Assembly (NCBI GenBank): GCA_040006715.1
Contig: JBDTWL010000011.1
Span: 3,728 to 67,727 of the forward strand
From: Ferruginibacter sp.
GTDB taxonomy: Bacteria > Bacteroidota > Bacteroidia > Chitinophagales > Chitinophagaceae
DNA length: 64,000 bases
Direction of reading: 5' to 3'
Both the position numbers and the translations under genes were made by a program. This document shows positions 31,312-61,348 of this stretch, piece by piece. Position 1 is the first letter of the stretch, and every line of letters starts with the position of its first letter. Below the pieces are notes generated by a model that made no database searches, was not told the DNA's origin, and saw only the letters and a program-made list of their open reading frames with translations.

Positions 31312-34107
31312 ATGCAACTAATTCATTGCTATATTAAAAAAGGGTCACTGCTTTTCATTTTTTGGTTTAGCTGCTTATCCCTGGCAGCCCAGGTCCCAAA
31401 CAATACCAGGGGGATCATAACTACTTCCGAGGCAACAGCAAATGCAGTGACCGGGGATGTATATGCGATCATAATGGGGGTTTCAACATATCCCGGTGTT
31501 TATCCTCCCTTAAAGTTTGCAGACAAGGATGCGATCCTTTTCCGCGACTTTTTGAAAACACCCAGTGGTGGAAGCACTAAGCCTGAAAATATATTGTTAC
31601 TCCTCAATGACAGTGCAAAAGCTGCAGATTTTAACGTGAGGGCCCTTGGTTGGTTAAAAAACAAGAACTTAAAAAAAGGAGACCGGCTCTATCTTTATTT
31701 CAGCGGGCATGGCGTTGCCATGAATGAGGCCCTTTACTTTTTTCTTCCTTATGATTGTGAGCCAAACAAGGATCCGGGAAATTATTTAGGCACCGGCAAT
31801 ATCAATTTGTATAATGTAAAGGTGGGTTTTATCGCCCCGCAAGTGTCGCGTGGAGTAGATGTGATACTCATCATGGATGCTTGCAGGAGCAATGAGATCC
31901 CAGGCGGGAAAGAAGAGAGCGGGCAGCATTTCAGCAATAAATTCATCGTACAACAGGAGATGGGAGAAACCATGTTGCTTTCTACCGGCCCGGGACAGGT
32001 CTCAATTGAAAGCCCTACTATCGGTAACGGGCATGGCCTTTTCACATACTACCTGGTGGATGGCCTGGCAGGTGAAGCAGATAAGGATTCATTGACCGGT
32101 GATAATGACGGGAAAGTATCCCTGGCAGAGATCAGCGCATATGTAAAAAGCCGGGTGAAGCGAAGAGCAAGAACAGATTTCAATACGGTTCAGATCCCTT
32201 TTGCATGTTGTGCTGAAAAAGACATGGCTACGATCGTAAAGGTAGATCCGCTAACATTTACGGCATGGGAATATTCCAAAAAAATACAGCAGCTTAGTTC
32301 AGATCAGAATTTATTTGCAGTAAACAATACCAGGCCGGGAGAAAAAGGCGTTGGCGCTATGTCAGGGATCGATACATCTCAAATAAGCCTTTACAACCAG
32401 TTCGTAGATGCCTTGAAAAAGGAAAAACTTGTTGGCGATGCGTCTGCGGAAACATTTTATAAACTAATGGAGAAAAACTGGCCGGGCAACAGTATTACCG
32501 AGGACGCAAAATATTCACTGGCCGCAAAATATCTTAATTTCTGCCAGCAAAAAATAAACCTGTTCCTGGCTGGTAAAGGCCTGGTCCATATCATGTATAT
32601 GGAAAAGGAGATCAGCAAAGAGCAGAAAGACAAGGACAACCCGGGGATCACGGAGTTGGGAGAACAAATAAAAAAACTCAAAACACTTGTTACCACGGGA
32701 TTTGATGTAGCTGCAGCGATGATGGAAAAAGCCATTGATCTGATGAAGAATGAACCACATTTGCTGGAGCCTGTTCGCCCTAAGTATGATTTTTTGAAAA
32801 CAATGGCTGCTTATTCCAGCAAAAGATCAAAATTGAAAGATGTACTGCAATATTGCCGTAGAGCCATTGAAGCTGACCCGCAATCTCCTTCCGGTTACTT
32901 GCTTATGGGATGGATCTACCAGGACATGCAGGATGACTCCTGCGAATATTATTTCAGGAAAGCAGCGGCGATGGCGCCCAAATGGGCATATCCAATGAAT
33001 GGCCTCGGCAATTTTTATATCTCTAAGAACAATAAGAAAGAAGCGATCCGGTATTTTTCCAAAGCTATATCCATGGATAATCTTTTCAGCAATGCCTACA
33101 GGAATCTTGGAATGACCTACTATAATAAAAAAGCATTTGATTCGGCTAAATATTATTTCAAAAAGGCGATCGATATAGACCCCTGTGATAGTTACGCGAA
33201 TGAAAATTATGGAAGTGCCAATGCAGAATATATCAGCCAGGAATTCGGTTCTAAATATACAGATAGTGTGTATTTTAAAATTGGCAGGAAATTCTTTTTA
33301 AGATCAATAGAATGTGACAGCAGTTTTGCATTGGGATATCAAAAAATGTCAGCACTGTACTCGCGTGCAAGGTTTGAGGATAGTGCACTCGCCATTCTTC
33401 AAAAATGCATCTCTGTCAATCCTGAAAATGCAGATGCATACAGGAACATAGGCACTTATTATTTAAGCAATCGCAAGGACAGCCTGCAGGCAGAAGAAAA
33501 TTTCAAAAAGGCGATCACGCTGGATCCTTCTAACGGTGAGAATTATTATTCATTGGCAAGGCTTTACAGGAAGCAAAAGAATAAGAACAAAGCCATTGAT
33601 ATCTATACAAGGGCCCTGGACAATATCGGTAATAATAAAGACCTGTTCAATGAACTGGGGAATGTTTATTTTGAAGCGCCTTCACAATTTGAAAAAGCGA
33701 TCAGTTATTATAACAAGGCACTTGAAATGGATCCTACACTCGCCTATGTTTATTTAAACCTGGGGAAACTGCATGAGGCAAAAGATGTATCCAAAGACAG
33801 CTCAATATATTATTACAGCAAAGCTGTCCTATATGATCCCGATCGTTTCCAGAAATTGAATCATACGATCGCCGACTTTTATTTTGACAATAAAAAATTC
33901 AGCGAGGCAAAAACATTTTACAGGCAATCGCTGGAAAAGCCAACACCTGGCAGGTATTGGGATGTGGAGCACCTGGTGAAGATACTTATTGAAGAAAAAA
34001 ACTTTATAGAAGCAGAAAGCACCTTAAAACAATACCTAACTCCGGGAGAAGATAAAAATCTTTATGAAATATTATCGGCTGCTATCAAAGAGGCATCAGG
34101 ACAATAG
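31312..34107 (+). CDS. Exported caspase-family protein with C-terminal TPR array
   Basis: Signal peptide, YFSGHG and IMDACRS dyad, GHGLFTYYLVDGLAG; many TPRs (e.g. AYRNLGMTYY, FNELGNVYF). Confidence 0.9.
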   Translation: MQLIHCYIKKGSLLFIFWFSCLSLAAQVPNNTRGIITTSEATANAVTGDVYAIIMGVSTYPGVYPPLKFADKDAILFRDFLKTPSGGSTKPENILLLLNDSAKAADFNVRALGWLKNKNLKKGDRLYLYFSGHGVAMNEALYFFLPYDCEPNKDPGNYLGTGNINLYNVKVGFIAPQVSRGVDVILIMDACRSNEIPGGKEESGQHFSNKFIVQQEMGETMLLSTGPGQVSIESPTIGNGHGLFTYYLVDGLAGEADKDSLTGDNDGKVSLAEISAYVKSRVKRRARTDFNTVQIPFACCAEKDMATIVKVDPLTFTAWEYSKKIQQLSSDQNLFAVNNTRPGEKGVGAMSGIDTSQISLYNQFVDALKKEKLVGDASAETFYKLMEKNWPGNSITEDAKYSLAAKYLNFCQQKINLFLAGKGLVHIMYMEKEISKEQKDKDNPGITELGEQIKKLKTLVTTGFDVAAAMMEKAIDLMKNEPHLLEPVRPKYDFLKTMAAYSSKRSKLKDVLQYCRRAIEADPQSPSGYLLMGWIYQDMQDDSCEYYFRKAAAMAPKWAYPMNGLGNFYISKNNKKEAIRYFSKAISMDNLFSNAYRNLGMTYYNKKAFDSAKYYFKKAIDIDPCDSYANENYGSANAEYISQEFGSKYTDSVYFKIGRKFFLRSIECDSSFALGYQKMSALYSRARFEDSALAILQKCISVNPENADAYRNIGTYYLSNRKDSLQAEENFKKAITLDPSNGENYYSLARLYRKQKNKNKAIDIYTRALDNIGNNKDLFNELGNVYFEAPSQFEKAISYYNKALEMDPTLAYVYLNLGKLHEAKDVSKDSSIYYYSKAVLYDPDRFQKLNHTIADFYFDNKKFSEAKTFYRQSLEKPTPGRYWDVEHLVKILIEEKNFIEAESTLKQYLTPGEDKNLYEILSAAIKEASGQ

Positions 34108-34347
34108 AAGACCTCCATCGCTCAGGTCCCGGAACAGATAAACAATTATGTATTTTGCAGTACAATTTGATAAACTGCTTAACGAATATTCCTGCAGCGA
34201 ACATTCCGGATGTGATTAAATTAAACTTTACGACTGATCGCTTGTTAATATACAAAGCCATTAGGTATGAATCCGCTGGCTGAATATTAAATTGCTGCAA
34301 AAGCTAGGTTTATATGCCTGTAGACTCGTGAAAAATGTTTATATAAA

Positions 34348-34363
34348 TGTCAATTTGCTGACA
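34348..34363 (+). promoter_or_regulatory. Crp/Fnr-type box upstream of the sigma-54 activator gene
   Basis: Perfect TGTCA-ATTTGC-TGACA; TTATTTTG ends at 34392, 29 nt downstream. Confidence 0.8.
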
Positions 34364-34450
34364 ATCCTTCCATAAATTAAGTGTTTATTTTGGCCAGGCA
34401 AATGCTTAACTTTAAATATCAAAACTAGTTGATATTAAACTTCTAATCAT

Positions 34451-37400
34451 ATGGGGAAAGTGATATCGAAAAATAAGGAATCCGACAAAGATCTGCACCT
34501 CTCCCATTTCTCATTGGAAAATCTCCATGAAGCAGTATTCTGGATCGATTCCAGGTCACATATCTTCCAGGTAAATGATATGGCCTGCCAGATGACGGGC
34601 TATTCCAAAGAAGATCTTTTAAAAAAAATGGTTGCAGACCTTAACCCAACCAATACAATAGCAGATTTTGAAACATTCTGGAAAAAACTAAAAAAGGAAA
34701 AGAAACTTACCTTCGATTCACAGCATCGCCATAAAGAAGGACACTTGTATGATGTTGAGGTAACCGGCAATTTTATAGAATACAATGGCGAAGAATTTTC
34801 ATGCAGTATTGTAAGGGATATCCGTAAAAAAAAGATGGAAGAAGAATTGTTACGCATCGTTTCTGAAGCAACCTCGGGCGTAACAGGAAAAGATTTTCTT
34901 GTCGAATTAACAAAGAACATCTGCAAAGTGATCGGTATGAAATATTGTTTCGTTGCCGAATGTGCAGATAGTGCGAAAACACGCTTTCGCACTATTGTAT
35001 TTACTGATGGAGAAAAAGTAATGGACAATTTCGAATATGATGCAAAAGATTCGGCCTGTCAAATGATGCTGAAAGCTGTTCCCTATTTTTTGGCAGAAGG
35101 CGCACAGAAATTGTTTAAAGGAGCTACCGGGATCGAATCATATATCGGTGCTCCTATCTTAAGCCATATAAATGGTGAAGTATTGGGACATATAGCCGCA
35201 AGCGATCCCAAACCAATCAGCAATGAAAAAAACCTCACCGCCATACTTCAGATATTCGCAGCAAGGATCGGTGCAGAATTAGCAAGGATGCAGGCAGAAG
35301 ATGCCCTTGAATCAAAGAATAAAGAATTAAACGACCGGTTAAGTGAAATAGAATTATATAACAGTACTGTAAAAAACTTGCAGGACCAGGTTTTCTGGCT
35401 CGATGATAAAGGAAAGTTTATCAGGGTAAATGATGCTGTAAGCAAAATTTCCGGTTACTGTGTAGATGAATTGATGCAGATGACCGTATTTGAACTTAAC
35501 CCTTCCCTTACAAAAAAAGAATGGGAAAAAGGATGGAGGGAAACGAAGAAGCACGGCCAGCAAATAATAGAGACAGAACATCGTACAAAGCAAGGACAAT
35601 CATATCCTGTAGAAGTTACCAACAATTTCATGACCCATAATGCTGTTGAATATTTCTGTTCGTCTGTAAGAGATATCCGCAAGCGTAAAATGGAAGAAGA
35701 ATTGTTACGTACCATTTCCGAAGCAACATCAGCACTGGTTGGCCAGGATTTCTTTGAAGCGCTCACAGAGTATGTTACCGTTTCTCTTGGTGTAAAAACA
35801 TGTATAATCACAGAATGCACAGATGCAGATAAGACAAGGGTACGAACACTTGCCTTCACCAAAGACAGCAAGTTGCAGGAGAACATTGAATATGATATAG
35901 AAGGAACGCCCTGTAAACTTGTGATGGAAGGAAAGGGATCCGACATTTTCATTTCATCAGGTGTTGACAAAACCTATCCCAAAGAAGCCGGTTATGATTC
36001 TTATGTTGCCGTACCCATCTATAGTTCGTCAAACAATGATGTGATCGGCCATATCGCTGCACTTGATGATCATCCGATGACCAACGAGATGAATCAAACA
36101 TCTATCCTCAAAATTTTTGCTGCCCGTGCAGGAGCAGAGATCGACAGGATAAAAGCAGAAGAAAAATTAAAGATCGCCAATGCCGATCTAAAGGTTTTAC
36201 TTAAAGAAAGTGAAGAACGTTTCCGCGACCTGTTTGAAGAAGCTCCGATCGCTTATGTTCATGAAGGGCTCGATTCTAAATTTATCAAAGCCAACCGTGC
36301 AGCTTTGAGTATCCTTGGTGTGAGGCCCGATGAAGTTCCAACAACTTATGGAAAGACAATGGCACCTGATACACCCGATGCACAGCGCCGCATGAAAGAA
36401 GCTTTTGAATCAGTGGGACGAGGTACTGACACAAGTGGCGTGGTGCTTGAGCTAAGACGTAAAGATAATGGCCAACCGATCTGGATACAGTGGTGGTCGA
36501 ACCCTGATGTTGGGGGGCAATTCACCAGGACCATGTTCATTGATATAACGGATAAAGTGTTGATGGAACAGGAACAGGCAAGGTTGCAGGCGCAGAACCA
36601 ATACCTGCAGGAAGAAATTAAATACAATAACAATTTTGAAGAGATCGTAAGCAAGAGCAAGAATTTTCATAAGGTCCTGCAACAGATCGAACAGGTTGCT
36701 TCAACAAATGCAACAGTGTTGATCATGGGTGAAAGCGGTACCGGTAAAGAATTGATCGCACGGGCTGTTCACAATATCAGCAACCGGAGTAAAAGGCCAT
36801 TGGTAAAAGTGAACTGTGCTACCCTTCCCGCCAATTTAATTGAAAGCGAATTGTTCGGGCATGAGAAAGGGGCATTCACCGGTGCGATGGAAAGAAAGAT
36901 CGGACGTTTTGAATTAGCAGATGGCGGTACCATCTTTTTAGATGAGATCGGTGAACTTCCTGTAGAATTACAGGCAAAATTATTACGTGTATTGCAGGAA
37001 GGCGAATTTGAAAGATTGGGCAATCCAAGAACTATGAAAGTAAATGTAAGGGTGATCGCCGCCACTAACCGCAACCTTGAACAGGCCATTGAGAAAAAAG
37101 AATTCAGGGAAGACCTTTATTACCGTTTGAATGTATTCCCGATAACCTGCCCGCCTTTGCGTGAAAGAAAAGAAGACATTCCATTGCTTGTAAAACATTT
37201 TTTACAAAAACATGAACCGAGGGTTGGTAAAAAGATCAGCAATGTATCGCCCAAAGTAATGGATATACTGAATACTTATGATTGGCCGGGTAATATCCGT
37301 GAACTGGAGAACCTGATAGAAAGGGCAATGATCTTATGTCCTGCGAATACGCTGCAGGAAGGTACATGGCTGCCTGTTACTAAATTTACTACTTTAAACG

Positions 37401-37573
37401 GCAAAGCAAACCTGCAAAAATTAGATGATGTGGAAAAGGATCACATTATGGAAATACTGAAACAAACCAACTGGAAAGTAAGTGGTGAAAAAGGCGCTGC
37501 AAAAATACTCGGCCTGAATGCAACAACACTTGAAGCAAGGATGAAGAAATTGGGAATTAAAAGAGAAGGCTAA
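34451..37573 (+). CDS. Sigma-54 enhancer-binding protein, PAS-GAF-PAS-GAF-PAS-AAA+-HTH (FhlA-like)
   Basis: [40 protein letters not shown] and WPGNIREL motifs plus C-terminal HTH; no receiver domain. Confidence 0.95.
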
Positions 37574-37645
37574 TTTGAGAATTTGGAGATGTGGAAATTT
37601 GAAAATTAAGAATGAATTTGCGAAAATATTTGATTTTCGAAAGTT
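37574..37645. repeat. Degenerate short-period intergenic repeat (AATTTG[A/G]AA-like)
   Basis: aatttgagaatttggagatgtggaaatttgaaaatt...aatttgcgaaaatatttg between convergent genes. Confidence 0.45.
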
Positions 37646-37647
37646 GA

Positions 37648-38712
37648 CTATCCCACCGAAAATTCATCCAATACTTTAATGTATTTACTGTTTTCCCTGA
37701 ACATTTGCAATCCCGAAGTAGTATCCATGTATGATAGCTTATAGTTTTTTTGATTCATCCTGCTTATCCTTGAAAGGATATCCAGGTGACGAATGATCTC
37801 TTTCCATGCAAAGAAGATAGAATGCCTGGGGTCATACATATGGGTGGGTTCACTACCGGCTCCGTTCAATTCAATGATGGAAAAATTCCTTCCCTGTCTT
37901 AACTCTTCCCAGCAATTATACCTTATATCAAGCCTTCCAAAATAAAAACCATTGATCTTTTTACAGGCATCGTCGATTGAATTAATAAGTGATTCATCGA
38001 TCAAATGGCTTGCATCCAGGAATTTGGCGCCCCGCACATGATTTCCGTAAGGTACCATTACACGACGCTGCCCTGCCTCAAGAACAGTATCAAAATCACT
38101 TCCGTCCGTACGTCGCAATGTTTCCAGCTGAAGGATAAAACGTTTATCCCTGCAAAGCAATTGTTCGATCGTTGATATCCCGTCACCGGTTAAGGATAAA
38201 AATTCCTTTTGCACGATCCCTGATATCTTGCCTTTTGCTTCGTTTGGATAACGATAATAAAAAATACCCACTTCATTTTCATAAGGGATAAATTCCTGTA
38301 TAAGAAAATCCACTTTTGATGATGCAATGTACCCTGCCAGCTCCTTATCATTCTCAATTTTCTTTACTGCTTTGCCCTGCATTCCTATATCCGGCTTGCC
38401 AATAAGGGGATATTGAAGGCCCCGGTCATTTATTTCTTTCAGCACATCTTTTAAAAATGTATTTGCTTTAAAGAATAAAGTAGCAGGATAATATTGTTGG
38501 GGCATCAGGTCATAGATCTCTTTTTTTGATTCAAGCAGGAAACCGCCGTTCTTTATTGTTGGGTTAGATGTACTGAAAAAGAAAAAAGAGCGTGCACGGA
38601 TGCCAAGCCATAGCCAATAAAAATAGATCGGCATATAAACAATATGAAAGGGCCAGTACTCCCAATTAAATAACTTTATAAAGAAAGGTTTATGCAATAT
38701 TGTCTTTAACAT
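37648..38712 (-). CDS. ATP-grasp (D-Ala-D-Ala-ligase-like) protein of unknown specificity
   Basis: NWEYWP N-terminus, LIGKPDIG, LIQEFI and FYFGRLDI...IIELNGAGSEP ATP-grasp motifs. Confidence 0.82.
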   Translation of the reverse strand: MLKTILHKPFFIKLFNWEYWPFHIVYMPIYFYWLWLGIRARSFFFFSTSNPTIKNGGFLLESKKEIYDLMPQQYYPATLFFKANTFLKDVLKEINDRGLQYPLIGKPDIGMQGKAVKKIENDKELAGYIASSKVDFLIQEFIPYENEVGIFYYRYPNEAKGKISGIVQKEFLSLTGDGISTIEQLLCRDKRFILQLETLRRTDGSDFDTVLEAGQRRVMVPYGNHVRGAKFLDASHLIDESLINSIDDACKKINGFYFGRLDIRYNCWEELRQGRNFSIIELNGAGSEPTHMYDPRHSIFFAWKEIIRHLDILSRISRMNQKNYKLSYMDTTSGLQMFRENSKYIKVLDEFSVG

Positions 38713-38722
38713 ACATTGATGA

Positions 38723-39460
38723 TTAAAATATATCAGCGGTCTCCCGTATAGATGAGACCAGTTTCATTTCTTTATTGTGGATACTTCTGTCCTTCAGGTC
38801 GAGGTACCTCATATTACAACGAAGAAATTCCATTGCAATACCCGTTACACTTACTGTTGATAAAAGCCCGTTGCGGTTCATGTTCAGGTCATTTTGCGTA
38901 TCCCCATCACCGGTAAATTTATGAAATGCGAAGATATCATCCTGTGCAGGAAGCGGGTTCTTATTCAGGAATGCTGCGAACCATTGTTCTCTTTTTTTCA
39001 CCACCTTTTCATCATACAAAGTTGAAGAGGACCAGATATAAGGCCGGTATTTTTTTAACTGCCTGCAATGCTTTGTTGAACCTGTCCACCTGCATTCATA
39101 CAGGCAGTTATCGAAAATGATCATGGTAAATGGTTCGATACCAGAAAGGGCCATATGCGTGAAATACCTTACGGGCATGATCGCATTGATGATCTCCAGG
39201 AAAATGATGCCCCTGCTTTTCCTGTAAGGTGCCATACTGGTATGCTTTTGAAAAGCCCCGTTCAAAAGGACAGCGGCGCATCCATTTTCATTCATAGCGA
39301 TCCAGGTCCCTCCTGCATCTGCATCCCTGGGATAAATGATCCTGTTGCCATTTACAAAATACAATTCGGGTGGAATGGCCTGTTTGCGGATAAATTTCTC
39401 ATCGCGGTTTGAAGTGATGTATATCCTGTCTTTGACGGGAATAAATGTTACTGTGCACAT
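38723..39460 (-). CDS. NRDE/TANGO2 family protein (Ntn-hydrolase fold)
   Basis: MCTV N-terminus, SNRDE, D..AGGTWI, LLNG, SRG and WSSSTLY motifs. Confidence 0.95.
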   Translation of the reverse strand: MCTVTFIPVKDRIYITSNRDEKFIRKQAIPPELYFVNGNRIIYPRDADAGGTWIAMNENGCAAVLLNGAFQKHTSMAPYRKSRGIIFLEIINAIMPVRYFTHMALSGIEPFTMIIFDNCLYECRWTGSTKHCRQLKKYRPYIWSSSTLYDEKVVKKREQWFAAFLNKNPLPAQDDIFAFHKFTGDGDTQNDLNMNRNGLLSTVSVTGIAMEFLRCNMRYLDLKDRSIHNKEMKLVSSIRETADIF

Positions 39461-39948
39461 GATCTGCGGTATTTAATGGTAGAAGTTGCAACGCCAAAAC
39501 CCTCAGGAATATTAATAGAAGAAACCTCGTTGATACCAACCCTGATCAGGGCCATATGATGTACGGTATGTTCCAGGTTATAGATGAGTTCACGGTAATA
39601 ATTGGTTTCAACCCCGATCGATTCTGTTGATTGTTCATCATAGCTGGAATCAAGTAATAAGCTTTTATTGCCCTTATCAATATTGTTGCAGATCATGTCC
39701 ATCAATTCGGTTGCAAGATCTTTGTCTGTTTCAATACGGATATCTCTTTTCCTTTTTTCATAATTCACAACACCTGTTTCATAACCATTGTATAGACAAA
39801 TGTATAATTCAATGATATGCCTTACATGCTGGCCAATAGAAGCATTGAACAATATCTTACTAGGCTGGGAGTATTCCCTTTCAGTCAATTGCTCAAGTGT
39901 TTCTTTCAGTTGCGAAAAGGAATTGTTGATGGCTGAATTTAATTGCAT
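39448..39948 (-). CDS. DinB family protein
   Basis: SIGQHVRH, VNYEKRKRD and LEHTVHH metal-binding His pattern. Confidence 0.9.
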   Translation of the reverse strand: MQLNSAINNSFSQLKETLEQLTEREYSQPSKILFNASIGQHVRHIIELYICLYNGYETGVVNYEKRKRDIRIETDKDLATELMDMICNNIDKGNKSLLLDSSYDEQSTESIGVETNYYRELIYNLEHTVHHMALIRVGINEVSSINIPEGFGVATSTIKYRRSCAQ

Positions 39949-39986
39949 AAAATTGATTTTAGTTTATTACCTGATGTTGAAGGCTG

Positions 39987-40718
39987 TTATTTAAAATTAT
40001 ATGAAACTCCTAACCCGAAAGTATTTGCCTTATTACGGAAACGATCATTCCTGGTACCATCGGGTGCGACCTGTTCCACGTTCTCGGTCTTATATTCTAC
40101 AAATACAAATTGGTAAACTGCTTTGATCCCCCAGCGTTGTGTAATCCTGTACTTTAAAAAGAATTCAGAGTTGAGGCTTCCTCGATCGTGATCTCCTGTC
40201 AACAATAAGTTGAAAGAAGCAGGCTTTGCCATAGGTTCTATCTTGGTTGCACCGTTTGCTTTGAATATGGCGCTACTCTCTCTCCCGAATGTGAACCCTG
40301 CCAGGTCAATATTAAAACCCGCATTCCACTTGCGGCTGAAATTATATCCAAGGTTGATACTTATATTAACAGAATTCGTCAATGGCCTTTGCACGGTAAG
40401 GGTATCCTGGTAATCGGTTCTTTGTCCCGCAAAGAATATTAAGAATGGAATTGTATTCGTACGTGCCAGTCTTGCAGGGGCAGTAGTAAAATCTGTTTTG
40501 GTTCCAAAGTAGCTTGTCCACCTGAGTCCAAGGCCTGCTTCCCATTTCTTCCTCTTGCCTATTTTCCAGTTGTGAACGTAAGAAGCAGCTGCTGTACCCT
40601 GGTATTTACCAATAGTGCCAGTAAGATCAACAAACTGGTCAATGCGTGAAGATCTATTTTGCGCATTGGTTGTAGAAACAGCAAACAGCACACTAATAAT
40701 CAATAAATATTTTTTCAT
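39987..40718 (-). CDS. Hypothetical outer-membrane beta-barrel protein
   Basis: Signal peptide, alternating amphipathic strands, C-terminal FGLGVSYNF. Confidence 0.7.
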   Translation of the reverse strand: MKKYLLIISVLFAVSTTNAQNRSSRIDQFVDLTGTIGKYQGTAAASYVHNWKIGKRKKWEAGLGLRWTSYFGTKTDFTTAPARLARTNTIPFLIFFAGQRTDYQDTLTVQRPLTNSVNISINLGYNFSRKWNAGFNIDLAGFTFGRESSAIFKANGATKIEPMAKPASFNLLLTGDHDRGSLNSEFFLKYRITQRWGIKAVYQFVFVEYKTENVEQVAPDGTRNDRFRNKANTFGLGVSYNFK

Positions 40719-40761
40719 TTTAAGCGTAATTAAGAACTACGAAGGGTTTTTATCAAGAGAT

Positions 40762-41166
40762 TTATTTACAAATAATATTTTTTATAAACACTAAGGCTTC
40801 ATTCCTGTATATGAGCAATAAGCCAAAACAACTCAGGAATACAAGCAAAGCATATATGAATAACTGCCCGCCATCATTCTTTACTACCAGGCCAAGTTTT
40901 GTCAGGTGAAAAAATAGGGCACCAGACATCACTCCCATTCCAAGTACTGCTCCCAACCAGGTGGTCCTGGGATAGATTATTAATATGGATGCGATCAGTT
41001 CTACAATGCCCGAAGCGATCCTGCCCCATGGTTCCATCCCAACTGTAGTAAAAATATAAACCGATTCCTCCGAAGCACTGAACTTGAAGTACAATGTCTG
41101 GAGCATAATAATGGCGGCGACCAGCCTCAGTGCCCACGTTCCTATTACTGAATAATTAATTGTCAT
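40762..41166 (-). CDS. DoxX family membrane protein
   Basis: LQTLYFKF, EPWGRI..G..E and GALFFHLT.LG motifs. Confidence 0.9.
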   Translation of the reverse strand: MTINYSVIGTWALRLVAAIIMLQTLYFKFSASEESVYIFTTVGMEPWGRIASGIVELIASILIIYPRTTWLGAVLGMGVMSGALFFHLTKLGLVVKNDGGQLFIYALLVFLSCFGLLLIYRNEALVFIKNIICK

Positions 41167-41191
41167 TGTTTAAATTTATTTTATATACAAT

Positions 41192-41252
41192 CCGCCTTCG
41201 CCAAGATCAGGCTGACCATATATTGTCATGTTGAGCTTGGCGAAACATAGAC
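41192..41252. repeat. Inverted pair of REP-like elements
   Basis: CCGCCTTCGCCAAGATCAGGCTGAC followed by GTCATGTTGAGCTTGGCGAAACATAGAC. Confidence 0.7.
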
Positions 41253-41261
41253 AGTATAAGG

Positions 41262-41729
41262 TCAATGAAATATTTTTTGCCAGTTAGCATCAGCATGTTG
41301 CTTTAATGTGCTCTCATTCTTATTCCAGGATTTCAAAGTATTATTGAATAAGCGGTTGTAAAAAAGATAAAGCTTACCGGAAACTATCTTGAAGGTTTCG
41401 GGGTCAACATTTACTTTAGAACCATCATTTCCCATCGCATAAGCACACCATCCGCCATATTGTGGTTCATAAGCAGCAGGATTCTTTTTAAAGGCTTCTT
41501 TATTTTCAGCAGAAGAAAAACGATAACTGATCCCTTCATAAAAAACATTACCCAATTCTTTTTTCCCTTTTATCGCTTTTCCTTCCTTAAAATATGCAAC
41601 AGGATCATACCCCTGGATAGCGATGCCATCATCAAGGTTGAATTGGCTTTTACGAACCAGTGCATCCTGCGAAAATGCATTCAGTATAAATGTGCTTAGA
41701 ATCACAGTGAGGAAAGGCTTTATTCTCAT
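41262..41729 (-). CDS. Exported YHS-domain protein (paralog 1)
   Basis: GYDPVAYF, YRFSS.EN...F...P..YEPQYGGWCAYAM and KLYLFYN motifs; ATG 41729 gives a clean signal peptide and lies downstream of a -7 box. Confidence 0.92.
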   Translation of the reverse strand: MRIKPFLTVILSTFILNAFSQDALVRKSQFNLDDGIAIQGYDPVAYFKEGKAIKGKKELGNVFYEGISYRFSSAENKEAFKKNPAAYEPQYGGWCAYAMGNDGSKVNVDPETFKIVSGKLYLFYNRLFNNTLKSWNKNESTLKQHADANWQKIFH

Positions 41730-41777
41730 TTTATGAAATTTTATAGAACAAATATAGGCTGCCCCCGAACCATGGGT

Positions 41778-41793
41778 TGTCGGGCAAATGACA
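41778..41793 (-). promoter_or_regulatory. Crp/Fnr-type box of the YHS-DoxX-...-ATP-grasp operon
   Basis: Minus strand TGTCA-TTTGCC-CGACA; canonical TATATTTG ends at 41749, 29 nt away. Confidence 0.8.
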
Positions 41794-41858
41794 TAAACGA
41801 AGAAAAGTTTAAAACGGATGCAAGCGTTCATAATCAAGGTCAAACTCCCAATTTTTAC

Positions 41859-41893
41859 TCCCAACATTTTGTGAGATTCCCAATAGGTTGGGA
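41859..41893. promoter_or_regulatory. Tandem dyads, candidate enhancer (UAS) for the sigma-54 activator
   Basis: TCCCAA-CATT-TTGTGA (41859-41874) and perfect TCCCAA-TAGG-TTGGGA (41878-41893). Confidence 0.55.
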
Positions 41894-41994
41894 GAAAATT
41901 CGAAGTCGATTTTTCAAATGCCAATTTCTAAATATTTTTTTTACCGTTTACTGGTAAGGCTTTCAGGGCAGTATAAGGTAGTGAAAAAAAATTC

Positions 41995-42009
41995 TGGCAC
42001 AGCGGTTGG
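41995..42009 (+). promoter_or_regulatory. Candidate sigma-54 -24/-12 promoter
   Basis: TGGCAC-AGCGG-TTGG versus consensus TGGCAC-N5-TTGC; only the -12 C differs. Confidence 0.6.
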
Positions 42010-42040
42010 CTATATACGGGCAAATATTTAATCCCGGAAA

Positions 42041-42364
42041 ATGAATAAGATGATCACAAAAGCAAATTTTAAGAAAGAAGTAGCAGAAAGCAATACCCTG
42101 TCATTGGTTCAATTTAAAACAGACTGGAATGGAGCTTCACAGATCGTATCTATGATATACGATGACCTGGCAAGATCATATAAAGGCATCGCAAATTTTC
42201 ATACAGTAGATTATGAAAATGAGCTGGCCCTGGTGAACGAGTATGGTGTAATGGAAGTCCCTACGATCCTTTTTTTCAAAGGGGGGATGATGATCGATCA
42301 TGTTGTGGGGCTGGTTCCAAAAAATGCGCTGATATCGAAGATCGAAAATCATTTATCTAAATAA
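42041..42364 (+). CDS. Thioredoxin-fold protein lacking all cysteines
   Basis: LVQFKTDWNGAS replaces WCGPC; cis-Pro motif EVPTILFFKGG retained; no Cys in 107 aa. Confidence 0.88.
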   Translation: MNKMITKANFKKEVAESNTLSLVQFKTDWNGASQIVSMIYDDLARSYKGIANFHTVDYENELALVNEYGVMEVPTILFFKGGMMIDHVVGLVPKNALISKIENHLSK

Positions 42365-42397
42365 ACAAATTTTTAAAAACTGTTAAATATCAAAACT

Positions 42398-43078
42398 ATG
42401 TACAACGAACTAAAATATGTTTACCTGAAAAGCCATCCACTTTTCGCAAACATGTCTGAAAAACAAGTTAATGATGCTTGTGAGCTGATGAAAGTAAAAA
42501 CCGTGTACCGTGGGGAGACATTTGATTATGGTGACGGGGATTATAGCAAAATATATCTTTTAATAAAAGGTAAGATCAAGATCACGCTTTGTGATGATAT
42601 GGACAATGAGTTGATCAAAGATATCCTTACAGCCCCGGATATTTTCGGTGACCTGAGCCTTGATGGCCGTCCATCAAGCGATGAATTTGCACAGGCATTG
42701 ATGGCAAATACAGTTGTATGTTTTTTCAATGCAACCGATTTCAAGAATATCCTCCAGGATAATGTTATGCTTGCCATGAATTATGCAAATACAGTGAATA
42801 ACAAACTCAAGAAACTGGAAAGCAGGCATTCAGACCTGGTATTCCATGATGCAAAGGCAAGGCTGATCCGTTTTATCAAGAACTGGGCAAAAACAGATGG
42901 CAACCGTATCGGCGATAAAATAATCCTGAACAATTATTTAACCCATAGTGATATAGCAGGTGTTATAGCTACTTCACGGCAGAGTGTGAATGTATTGTTC
43001 AATGAACTCCGTGATGCCGGTATGCTGATGTATGACAGGAAGAGGATACAGCTGAATGATATGATCGCTTGGAATTGA
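42398..43078 (+). CDS. Crp/Fnr family transcriptional regulator
   Basis: cNMP-binding-like barrel (IYLLIKGKIKI, DIFGDLSL) and HTH LTHSDIAGVIATSRQSV. Confidence 0.95.
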   Translation: MYNELKYVYLKSHPLFANMSEKQVNDACELMKVKTVYRGETFDYGDGDYSKIYLLIKGKIKITLCDDMDNELIKDILTAPDIFGDLSLDGRPSSDEFAQALMANTVVCFFNATDFKNILQDNVMLAMNYANTVNNKLKKLESRHSDLVFHDAKARLIRFIKNWAKTDGNRIGDKIILNNYLTHSDIAGVIATSRQSVNVLFNELRDAGMLMYDRKRIQLNDMIAWN

Positions 43079-43082
43079 TACC

Positions 43083-43157
43083 CTTTGTGTTACTTAGTGA
43101 TTTAGTGTCTTTGTGGCGAATTTATTCTTTGCCACTAAAACACAAAGGCACAAAAAG
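43083..43157. repeat. Intergenic inverted repeat with roughly 9-nt internal period
   Basis: ctttgtgtt...tttagtgtctttgtggc / gccactaaaacacaaaggcacaaaaag. Confidence 0.7.
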
Positions 43158-43168
43158 CTGCTCAAAGT

Positions 43169-43184
43169 TGTCCACCGCACGACA
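43169..43184 (+). promoter_or_regulatory. Crp/Fnr-type box upstream of the SDR-GH63-debranching genes
   Basis: TGTCC-ACCGCA-CGACA; TACTTTTA ends at 43213, 29 nt downstream. Confidence 0.7.
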
Positions 43185-43236
43185 ATACAATTTTTCATCA
43201 CACAATACTTTTACAAAATAAAACAATAACATAAAC

Positions 43237-44043
43237 ATGCAACAAAAATTACAGGACCAGGTGGCTATTGTAACAGGTGCCAGCAGTGGCATTGGAGCCG
43301 GATGCGCCATGGAACTTGCCAGGGCAGGGGCAAAAGTGATCGTGAACTACCCCATTCCCCAGGGAAAAGAAATGGCAGAGAAAGTGGTGGAACAAATTGT
43401 GGCTGATGGCGGCAGGGCCATATCATACAAATGCGATGTGAGTAAAGAAGATGAGGTAAAACAAATGTTTGCAGACACGATCAAAGAATTTGGTACTGTT
43501 GATATCCTTGTTAACAATGCAGGGCTTCAAAAAGATGCTCCATTCACCGAAATGACATTGGATCAATGGAATTTTGTTTTAGCTGTAAATTTAACAGGGC
43601 AATTTCTTTGTGCAAGGGAAGCCATTAAAGAATTTTTACGCCGTGGAGTAAATGGCAAATCAAAAAGTGCCGGCAAGATCATTTGTATGAGCAGTGTGCA
43701 TGAAGTTATTCCATGGGCTGGACATGCAAACTATGCTGCAAGCAAAGGCGGCGTTATGCTGATGATGAAAACGATCGCACAGGAATTTGCGCCAAAGATG
43801 ATCCGCATTAACAGCATTGCCCCCGGTGCTATTGCAACTCCCATCAATCATGATGCATGGGATACACAGGCCCACCTGCAGGAATTATTAAAACTGATAC
43901 CGCAAAAAAGAGTCGGGCAGGTTGATGATATTGGTAAAGCAGCGGTTTGGTTGGCAAGTGATGACAGTGATTACGTAAATGGAACTACCTTGTTTGTTGA
44001 TGGGGGAATGACCTTGTACCCGGGATTTGAAGACAATGGATAA
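43237..44043 (+). CDS. SDR oxidoreductase, glucose 1-dehydrogenase-like
   Basis: TGASSGIG, NNAG, SSVHEVIPW, YAASKGG and GTTLFVDGGMTLYP motifs. Confidence 0.88.
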   Translation: MQQKLQDQVAIVTGASSGIGAGCAMELARAGAKVIVNYPIPQGKEMAEKVVEQIVADGGRAISYKCDVSKEDEVKQMFADTIKEFGTVDILVNNAGLQKDAPFTEMTLDQWNFVLAVNLTGQFLCAREAIKEFLRRGVNGKSKSAGKIICMSSVHEVIPWAGHANYAASKGGVMLMMKTIAQEFAPKMIRINSIAPGAIATPINHDAWDTQAHLQELLKLIPQKRVGQVDDIGKAAVWLASDDSDYVNGTTLFVDGGMTLYPGFEDNG

Positions 44044-50311: not shown

Positions 50312-50327
50312 AGTCAGCCAGGTGACA
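50312..50327 (-). promoter_or_regulatory. Crp/Fnr-type box upstream of YHS paralog 2
   Basis: Minus strand TGTCA-CCTGGC-TGACT; canonical TAATTTTG ends at 50283, 29 nt away. Confidence 0.8.
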
Positions 50328-51224: not shown

Positions 51225-51240
51225 CGTCACTTACCTGACA
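51225..51240 (+). promoter_or_regulatory. Crp/Fnr-type box upstream of the GMC oxidoreductase
   Basis: CGTCA-CTTACC-TGACA; TCTCTTTG ends at 51269, 29 nt downstream. Confidence 0.78.
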
Positions 51241-53335: not shown

Positions 53336-53351
53336 TGTCAGGCCATTGACA
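53336..53351 (+). promoter_or_regulatory. Crp/Fnr-type box upstream of the aquaporin gene
   Basis: Perfect TGTCA-GGCCAT-TGACA; TCTCTTTG ends at 53380, 29 nt downstream; ATG at 53385. Confidence 0.82.
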
Positions 53352-55561: not shown

Positions 55562-55577
55562 AGTCATCTACATGACA
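55562..55577 (+). promoter_or_regulatory. Crp/Fnr-type box upstream of the S8 peptidase operon
   Basis: AGTCA-TCTACA-TGACA; TTGTTTTG ends at 55606, 29 nt downstream; ATG at 55611. Confidence 0.78.
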
Positions 55578-61332: not shown

Positions 61333-61348
61333 TGTCGGCAACCTTACA
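61333..61348 (-). promoter_or_regulatory. Crp/Fnr-type box upstream of coaB
   Basis: Minus strand TGTAA-GGTTGC-CGACA; canonical TAGATTTG ends at 61304, 29 nt away. Confidence 0.72.

Follow-up and report, generated by a model that had tools for sequence, protein, structure and literature searches.

In Myxococcus xanthus, the enhancer-binding protein (EBP) MrpB activates mrpC, which encodes a regulator of the Crp/Fnr family, and the module serves as a developmental checkpoint (PMC11980068). Expression of mrpA and mrpB is lower in an mrpC mutant and an MrpC site lies near the mrpA transcript start; MrpC appears to feed back on mrpAB, and it represses its own promoter by competition with MrpB (PMC11980068). 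In Burkholderia cenocepacia, BerB acts with RpoN to activate berA, whose CRP/FNR product in turn activates the nearby bep cluster (PMC9684580). Here we describe a 64,000-nucleotide stretch of a Ferruginibacter sp. genome (contig C11:3728-67727, hereafter the window) that encodes a sigma-54 EBP, a thioredoxin-fold (trx-like) protein and a Crp/Fnr-family regulator, which we refer to as Crp. A first-pass annotation of this DNA had proposed that the activator drives crp and that Crp drives the activator gene. Conserved sites at both arms, together with the co-occurrence of the genes, lend support to this wiring, which would be an arrangement of the MrpB/MrpC type, in which the EBP would activate crp through sigma-54 and Crp would act on the EBP operon. 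We give the full positive EBP-Crp loop a somewhat better than even chance of being correct.

The locus differs from the Mrp module in several respects. MrpB is phosphorylated (MrpB~P) and MrpA is its phosphatase, whereas the EBP described here has PAS/GAF sensors and no identified phosphorylation partner. MrpC represses itself, whereas no candidate Crp operator (hereafter box) overlaps the dyads of the putative trx-crp enhancer. The Mrp module has no trx-like partner, it belongs to another phylum, its proteins are not orthologous to those of the window, and the candidate regulon here forms one compact 32-kb island. With the Ber system the locus would share a two-step cascade in which both tiers are gated by signals; both Ber proteins, however, sense c-di-GMP, their target is an exopolysaccharide cluster and the paper describes no feedback from BerA to berB (PMC9684580).

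The first-pass annotation noted the wiring as not known to have been described in Bacteroidota. Searches of the literature likewise yielded no description of EBP-Crp wiring in this phylum, the absence of a report not being proof, but the topology itself is known from MrpB and mrpC and from BerB and berA, and the novelty is therefore smaller than had been assumed. What is new here is the phylum, the PAS/GAF array on the EBP, the thioredoxin-fold partner without the nucleophilic Cys and the compact single-island regulon.

Results

Genes of the candidate circuit

The genome comprises 3.95 Mb in 107 contigs and is 95% complete, with C11 accounting for 71 kb or 1.8% of it. We compared it with 250 congeners, of which 17 carry a Crp orthologue and 233 carry none; a scan of genome contigs for close relatives returned only two, both Chitinophagales/Chitinophagaceae metagenome-assembled genomes.

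The EBP has the attributes of its class (Table 1). Its AAA+ sigma-54 interaction domain (PF00158, E 1.3e-75) is followed by an AAA lid and a C-terminal Fis-type helix-turn-helix (HTH_8, E 3.8e-7), and the Walker A (GESGTGKE), Walker B (DEIGE) and GAFTGA motifs are intact in the translation. The rpoN gene on which the proposed wiring depends is present as a 499-aa frame (Sigma54_DBD, E 2e-53). The three PAS and two GAF domains read from the sequence by the first-pass annotation are found in the expected order, the second GAF falling under the Pfam threshold (E 0.001) yet lying within an obvious internal PAS-GAF duplication. In total, the genome encodes seven true EBPs and five cNMP-domain proteins.

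Crp combines an N-terminal cNMP-binding-type fold with a C-terminal HTH_Crp_2 domain, and its matches in the PDB include NtcA, GlxR-type proteins, CooA and CRP. The trx-like protein has WNGAS where a functional thioredoxin has WCGPC with its two cysteines; it contains zero Cys and keeps the fold alone. The motif WSGPC, which lacks the nucleophilic first Cys and retains the second, occurs in 12/16 orthologues. The description of this protein as a Cys-less thioredoxin thus holds for the present genome and its nearest relative, G250, the only two with a fully Cys-free version, and does not extend to the other 14 of the 16 orthologues, each of which keeps at least one Cys.

The trx-like gene lies directly upstream of crp at 16 loci, a 17th being interrupted by a contig end. 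The gap between the two genes is 33 nt here and 26-51 nt over the 16 loci, and no terminator was found between them. The trx-like protein is thus far a putative partner of Crp. A sister clade of Crp proteins (G125 L035, G244b L047 and G123a L036) is ~60% identical and has the same SRQ helix. Within 800 nt, its members have neither a trx-like gene nor a sigma-54 element, which makes the wiring specific to the Trx-Crp clade. In place of the trx-like gene, the sister clade has, ahead of crp, a small ORF that carries a conserved YDECGDTMWD motif; in G125 and G123a, a further conserved ORF lies upstream of this small ORF.

A conserved, putative sigma-54-type promoter upstream of trx-crp

The putative near-consensus sigma-54 promoter at 41995 and the tandem upstream dyads that had been noted in the first pass are both present, and both are conserved across relatives in an alignment of 15 orthologous trx upstream regions (MAFFT, mean identity 61%). 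TGGCA(C/T)-N5-TTGG is found 42-47 nt before the trx-like ATG in 14/15 aligned loci, or 15/16 counting G220, and the invariant alignment columns are those of the two dyads and of TGGCA..T.G.CTA.A. The tandem TCCCAA-N4-TTGGGA dyads lie ~100-150 bp upstream of the promoter element, which is the usual distance for an enhancer, and the perfect dyad has a single occurrence in the 3.95-Mb genome. By number the sigma-54 pattern is not above chance in the window, with 4 matches vs 5.6 expected, so that the case rests on its conservation.

The Bacteroidota-type −7 promoter consensus is TAnnTTTG, and it is absent from all trx upstream regions (0/15), compared with a frequency of 21% among long ORFs genome-wide. 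A sigma-70-type scan of the trx upstream region, which is of limited relevance in Bacteroidota, gave no promoter-like match.

Between the dyads and the promoter there is a third conserved element, which in several relatives takes the form of a near-perfect palindrome, AACCCTTTACAGTAAAGGGTT (alignment columns ~150-180). It could be the site of a bending protein or the operator of a further regulator. Elsewhere in the genome, other likely sigma-54 promoters include two near-identical canonical copies of TGGCACGGTGATTGC at C2:102320 and C2:102706, 386 bp apart and before small genes.

Phased boxes form a candidate regulon around crp

A perfect TGTCA-N6-TGACA box precedes the activator gene at 34451, as the first-pass annotation had reported. 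At six sites in the window (34348, 41793 (−), 50327 (−), 51225, 53336 and 55562), the distance from the box to the end of TTTG is exactly 29 nt; the box thus stands 21 nt ahead of a TAnnTTTG −7 element and has its centre at ~−41.5. When a box with at most one mismatch is combined with a phased TTTG, the genome holds 8 sites, of which 7 are confined to 32 kb of C11 around crp; under relaxed criteria, 12/100 genome matches fall on this contig. Three further phased sites are located just outside the window, and every site precedes a gene start. The perfect box by itself is not above chance (3 copies in 3.95 Mb vs ~4.6 expected from base composition by our own estimate), and the signal therefore lies in its fixed-offset combination with the −7 element. 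Neither the box nor the sigma-54 motif alone beats chance, whereas the phasing of the box, the clustering and the conservation across genomes do.

These sites have the form of a Crp/Fnr operator, a 5-N6-5 palindrome at ~−41.5, and Crp is their putative binder. As with the class II sites of Escherichia coli CRP and FNR at −41.5, a 16-bp palindrome stands at a fixed distance from a downstream promoter element and replaces the upstream one. The two differ in that the −7 element here is the Bacteroidota TAnnTTTG and the half-site is TGTCA, not TGTGA or TTGAT. The box also resembles TGT-N10-ACA, the NifA-type enhancer pattern, a reading that we rejected because no −24/−12 element follows any box and all boxes are phased to a TAnnTTTG-type element.

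The first-pass annotation had described the trx-like/crp pair as lacking a box. The intergenic region shared by trx and the divergent YHS operon does contain a one-mismatch box, so this statement needs amending, but that box is phased to the YHS operon and not to trx. In G001, G239, G096, G190 and G250, too, a homologous box faces the YHS gene.

The box upstream of the EBP gene is conserved as well, with at least 10 orthologues keeping it in all. Placed 21 nt before TAnnTTGC and 94-103 nt upstream of the ATG, the box is clearly recognisable in G180, G023, G220, G155, G174, G239 and G096, with weaker palindromes in G244, G250 and G035. Within the activator gene's predicted 5' leader, a TTAACTTTA(A/G) motif (~34405-34425 in the window) is likewise conserved in nearly all orthologues. 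Known RNA families gave zero matches in 34100-43300 at E <= 1.

Crp as the candidate binder of the box

We searched all 250 congeners with the composite pattern TGTCA-N6-NGACA-N25-TTKS. The 17 Crp-positive genomes returned 42 matches (2.47 per genome, at least one in 14/17; 15 with a reversed-pattern control), as against 54 in the 233 Crp-negative genomes (0.23 per genome), so that composite sites are ~ten times denser where Crp is present. In G239, all four box matches fall in the interval from crp to the EBP gene, and in the present genome the sites surround crp.

The best solved matches of the Crp DNA-binding domain are CooA structures (2fmy, E 3.5e-6, then 1ft9). The recognition helix reads TSRQSV here, TTRQTV and SSRQTT in CooA, and SRETV in CRP-type proteins. 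CooA, with its R-Q helix, binds the operator TGTCGGCnnGCCGACA, which is of TGTCR-N6-YGACA design (PMC545781), and this bears out an earlier companion claim that the Gln in the recognition helix fits TGTCA. The present boxes follow the same operator design, and the R-Q helix in place of the R-E of CRP is common to both proteins. The likeness concerns DNA recognition and not the sensed signal: full-length Crp scores higher with NtcA and GlxR-type proteins, annotation of the island (34-64 kb) shows no coo genes, and Crp is not classed as CooA.

Searches of the genome by tblastn and with a six-frame motif scan detected no R-Q-type Crp/Fnr protein other than this Crp, and Pfam searches of 34-64 kb found no DNA-binding regulator beyond the EBP and Crp. 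Among the Crp-negative genomes, those with several boxes (G207, G251, G212 and G172) encode a paralogue that is 27-30% identical and has the same SRQTV helix; in G168 no such paralogue was found at E <= 1e-10. Paralogues of this kind (27-32% identical, SRQTVTT helix) explain the boxes of most Crp-negative multi-box genomes and so leave the link between Crp and the box uncontradicted. One box-plus-promoter sequence, TGTCAGGCTGCCGACACAGGTACTGATCCAnCCGGCTTTAATTTG, recurs nearly unchanged in G207, G212, G155, G251, G168, G029, G244, G180, G174, G125 and G035, with or without a Crp orthologue, and probably represents a conserved site at which the distant SRQTV paralogue acts.

Co-occurrence of the EBP, trx-like and crp genes

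In line with the proposed wiring, the activator, trx-like and crp genes travel together. Crp orthologues (52-85% identical) occur in 17/250 congeners. A query with the sensor region of the EBP matches 22/250, among them 17/17 of the Crp-positive genomes, and Crp occurs in 0/228 of the EBP-negative ones. Four of the five genomes that have an EBP match and no Crp carry a shorter paralogue, and the fifth, G213, is only 75% complete. Whenever the EBP gene and crp are on one contig, a distance of 2-30 kb separates them. In G244 and G198 the EBP gene directly precedes the trx-crp pair in the same orientation, and in G250 a single YHS gene stands between. This is the pattern that would be expected of a dedicated activator.

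The shorter EBP paralogues (L063-L067; G238, G125, G112, G033 and G246) carry TTCnCGAAATATCnGGAAA dyads, similar to the trx enhancer, in their own upstream regions. The presence of these dyads before paralogous activator genes hints at autoregulation and suggests that the dyad type is the binding site of the family.

Table 1. Coordinates of the features in the window
Feature	Position	Strand	Remarks
Perfect TGTCA-N6-TGACA box TGTCAATTTGCTGACA, activator promoter	34348..34363	+	103 nt before ATG 34451; centre ~−41.5
−7-like element TTATTTTG of activator promoter	34385..34392	+	begins 21 nt after box
Sigma-54 EBP, 1040 aa	34451..37573	+	PAS-GAF-PAS-GAF-PAS-AAA+-HTH_8
Six-gene operon (YHS, DoxX, outer-membrane barrel, unknown, TANGO2/NRDE-like, unknown)	37648..41731	−	candidate box target, divergent from trx
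Box TGTCATTTGCCCGACA, one mismatch	41778..41793	−	21 nt upstream of TATATTTG (41749-41756) of YHS operon
Putative upstream activating sequence	41846..41893	+	TCCCAA at 41846; dyad 41859-41874 (1 mismatch); perfect dyad TCCCAATAGGTTGGGA 41878-41893
Third conserved element ACCGTTTACTGGTAAGGCTTTCAGGG	41943..41968	+	palindrome AACCCTTTACAGTAAAGGGTT in relatives; between dyads and promoter; 15-genome alignment
Sigma-54-type −24/−12 element TGGCACagcggTTGG	41995..42009	+	32 nt before trx-like ATG; one mismatch from TGGCAC-N5-TTGC
Thioredoxin-fold protein without catalytic cysteines (WNGAS)	42041..42364	+	Pfam PF00085, E 2.9e-17
Crp/Fnr-family regulator, CooA-like recognition helix TSRQSV	42398..43078	+	PF00027, E 9.6e-8; PF13545, E 1.2e-9
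Box (1 mismatch), YHS-TMEM175 operon	50312..50327	−	phased site
Box (1 mismatch), GMC oxidoreductase gene	51225..51240	+	phased site
Perfect box, aquaporin-glyoxalase genes	53336..53351	+	phased site
Box (1 mismatch), S8 protease/CBM48 gene and membrane redox genes (ferric-reductase/Rieske)	55562..55577	+	phased site
Weaker box (2 mismatches), DFP-domain gene	61333..61348	−	relaxed search

Beyond crp, the island (43237-64000) encodes a glycogen debranching enzyme, a GH63/MGH1-like hydrolase, an aquaporin, a TMEM175-type K+ channel, two YHS proteins, a cytoplasmic S8 protease with CBM48 and a ferric-reductase/Rieske fusion. This mix of genes suggests an osmotic, desiccation or storage-carbon programme.

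Discussion

The genes and motifs of this locus, with their phasing, clustering, conservation and co-occurrence, outline a circuit whose binding assignments and whose activation by both arms are read from sequence. The EBP would bind the tandem TCCCAA-N4-TTGGGA dyads ~100-150 bp upstream of TGGCAC-N5-TTGG and, when permitted by its sensors, use ATP to open the sigma-54 holoenzyme complex. Transcription would then yield a bicistron for the redox-dead thioredoxin-fold protein and the Crp/Fnr regulator. A Crp dimer would in turn bind TGTCA-N6-YGACA near −41.5 at ~ten TAnnTTTG housekeeping-type promoters in the 32-kb island, where the box takes the position of the usual −33 element. The promoter of the EBP gene is among these predicted targets, so Crp would raise the level of its own activator.

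Amplification of the signal is the expected behaviour of such a loop, and bistability would be no more than a possibility. For a positive loop that is strictly closed, some leak is required to set it going, and the off-consensus −12 base described below could supply it, an idea that draws on published work on −12 mutants. A more elaborate version would be a bistable commitment switch in which the −12 leak primes the circuit, PAS/GAF signals and the Crp ligand have to act together to latch it and the cysteine-poor thioredoxin-fold protein gates Crp as an obligate partner, so that the island runs as an all-or-none dormancy, desiccation or osmotic-stress programme in a subpopulation of Chitinophagaceae cells; we consider this version very unlikely.

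Several observations weigh against the positive loop, and each is best considered with the explanation that it favours. The cascade may be real and its feedback negative or neutral, with Crp repressing or buffering the EBP promoter to give homeostasis. Crp/Fnr proteins can repress, a site at −41.5 that usually activates may also serve repression, and MrpC offers a precedent in competing with MrpB at its own promoter (PMC11980068). The EBP box, moreover, is absent in G001 and G123 and degenerate in G250, the closest relative, and the return arm is therefore conserved less strictly than the sigma-54 arm, as if less constrained. Set against this is the position of the EBP box, which is phased just as at the ~ten structural-gene promoters and replaces the −33 element, the classic geometry of activator dependence. 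Negative or neutral feedback is thus an unlikely outcome in our estimation.

The positive loop also requires that the promoter of trx-crp be of the sigma-54 type. The conserved TGGCAY-N5-TTGGCTATA might instead serve as an operator, or as a promoter for a different sigma factor, the dyads being bound by another regulator, possibly Crp itself, and the EBP having no control of trx-crp. In every orthologue the −12 base is G instead of the canonical C (TTGG and not TTGC), with TCGA in G198. The promoter TTGGC pairs with GCCAA 12 nt downstream (TTGGCTATAAAGATTGTGCCAA) in most relatives (L004, L005, L037, L040 and L042-L046), although not in this window, G250, G244 or G198, and TTGGCTATAAAGATTGTGCCAA could be an operator over the transcript start or a leader hairpin. 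The chance-level count of the pattern in the window and the resemblance of TCCCAA-N4-TTGGGA to FNR-type 5-N4-5 sites point the same way. This alternative nevertheless has to account for the invariant TGGCA with the right 5-nt spacing to TTG at 42-47 nt from the ATG, the dyads at a textbook enhancer distance, the lack of a TAnnTTTG alternative and the strict co-occurrence of the EBP with the locus. The −12 base itself is probably no defect in this lineage, because the well-placed TGGCAY-N5-TTGN sites of this genome, those located 25-115 nt upstream of an ORF start, have C, G, A and T at −12 in similar numbers; two TTGG sites, at C4:6086 and C18:32021, adjoin other EBP genes. We accordingly regard a promoter of another kind as quite improbable. 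TTGG or TTGT variants adjoining other EBP genes are found at C18:30153 in addition to these two positions.

Finally, one arm of the positive loop might be mis-assigned, the dyads being served by another EBP or the box by an unrecognised regulator of the island, which would leave neighbours and no loop. The genome encodes six EBPs besides this one, and six island ORFs without a Pfam match might hide a regulator. The co-occurrence of the EBP and Crp may reflect hitch-hiking through joint carriage of one island; the 17 genomes are related, so the observations are not independent and the counts overstate their independence. Distant paralogues with the same R-Q helix occur in many congeners, and some boxes there belong to regulators other than this Crp. 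However, the genome has the perfect dyad only once, and no EBP gene is nearer to it than the one described here, which adjoins trx-crp in G244 and G198 and is one YHS gene away in G250. The R-Q helix fits the box by the precedent of CooA, and no second Crp of this type is encoded in the genome. A wrong assignment at either arm is, in view of this, rather improbable as well.

The transcriptional circuits of Bacteroidota beyond gut Bacteroides are almost unmapped, and this locus offers a compact circuit that is open to direct testing: one EBP with a single unique enhancer, one Crp with ~ten candidate operators in one 32-kb island, and a conserved return arm. The phased boxes indicate that a Crp/Fnr protein can activate in the class II manner at the TAnnTTTG promoter of Bacteroidota, with a constant spacing of 21 nt; at −12, any base seems to be tolerated by the sigma-54 promoters of the lineage. 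If the proposed loop is correct, it would represent a second, independently evolved Mrp-type design in which an EBP and a Crp regulator act on each other, and it would provide a handle on the role of the cysteine-poor thioredoxin-fold partner.

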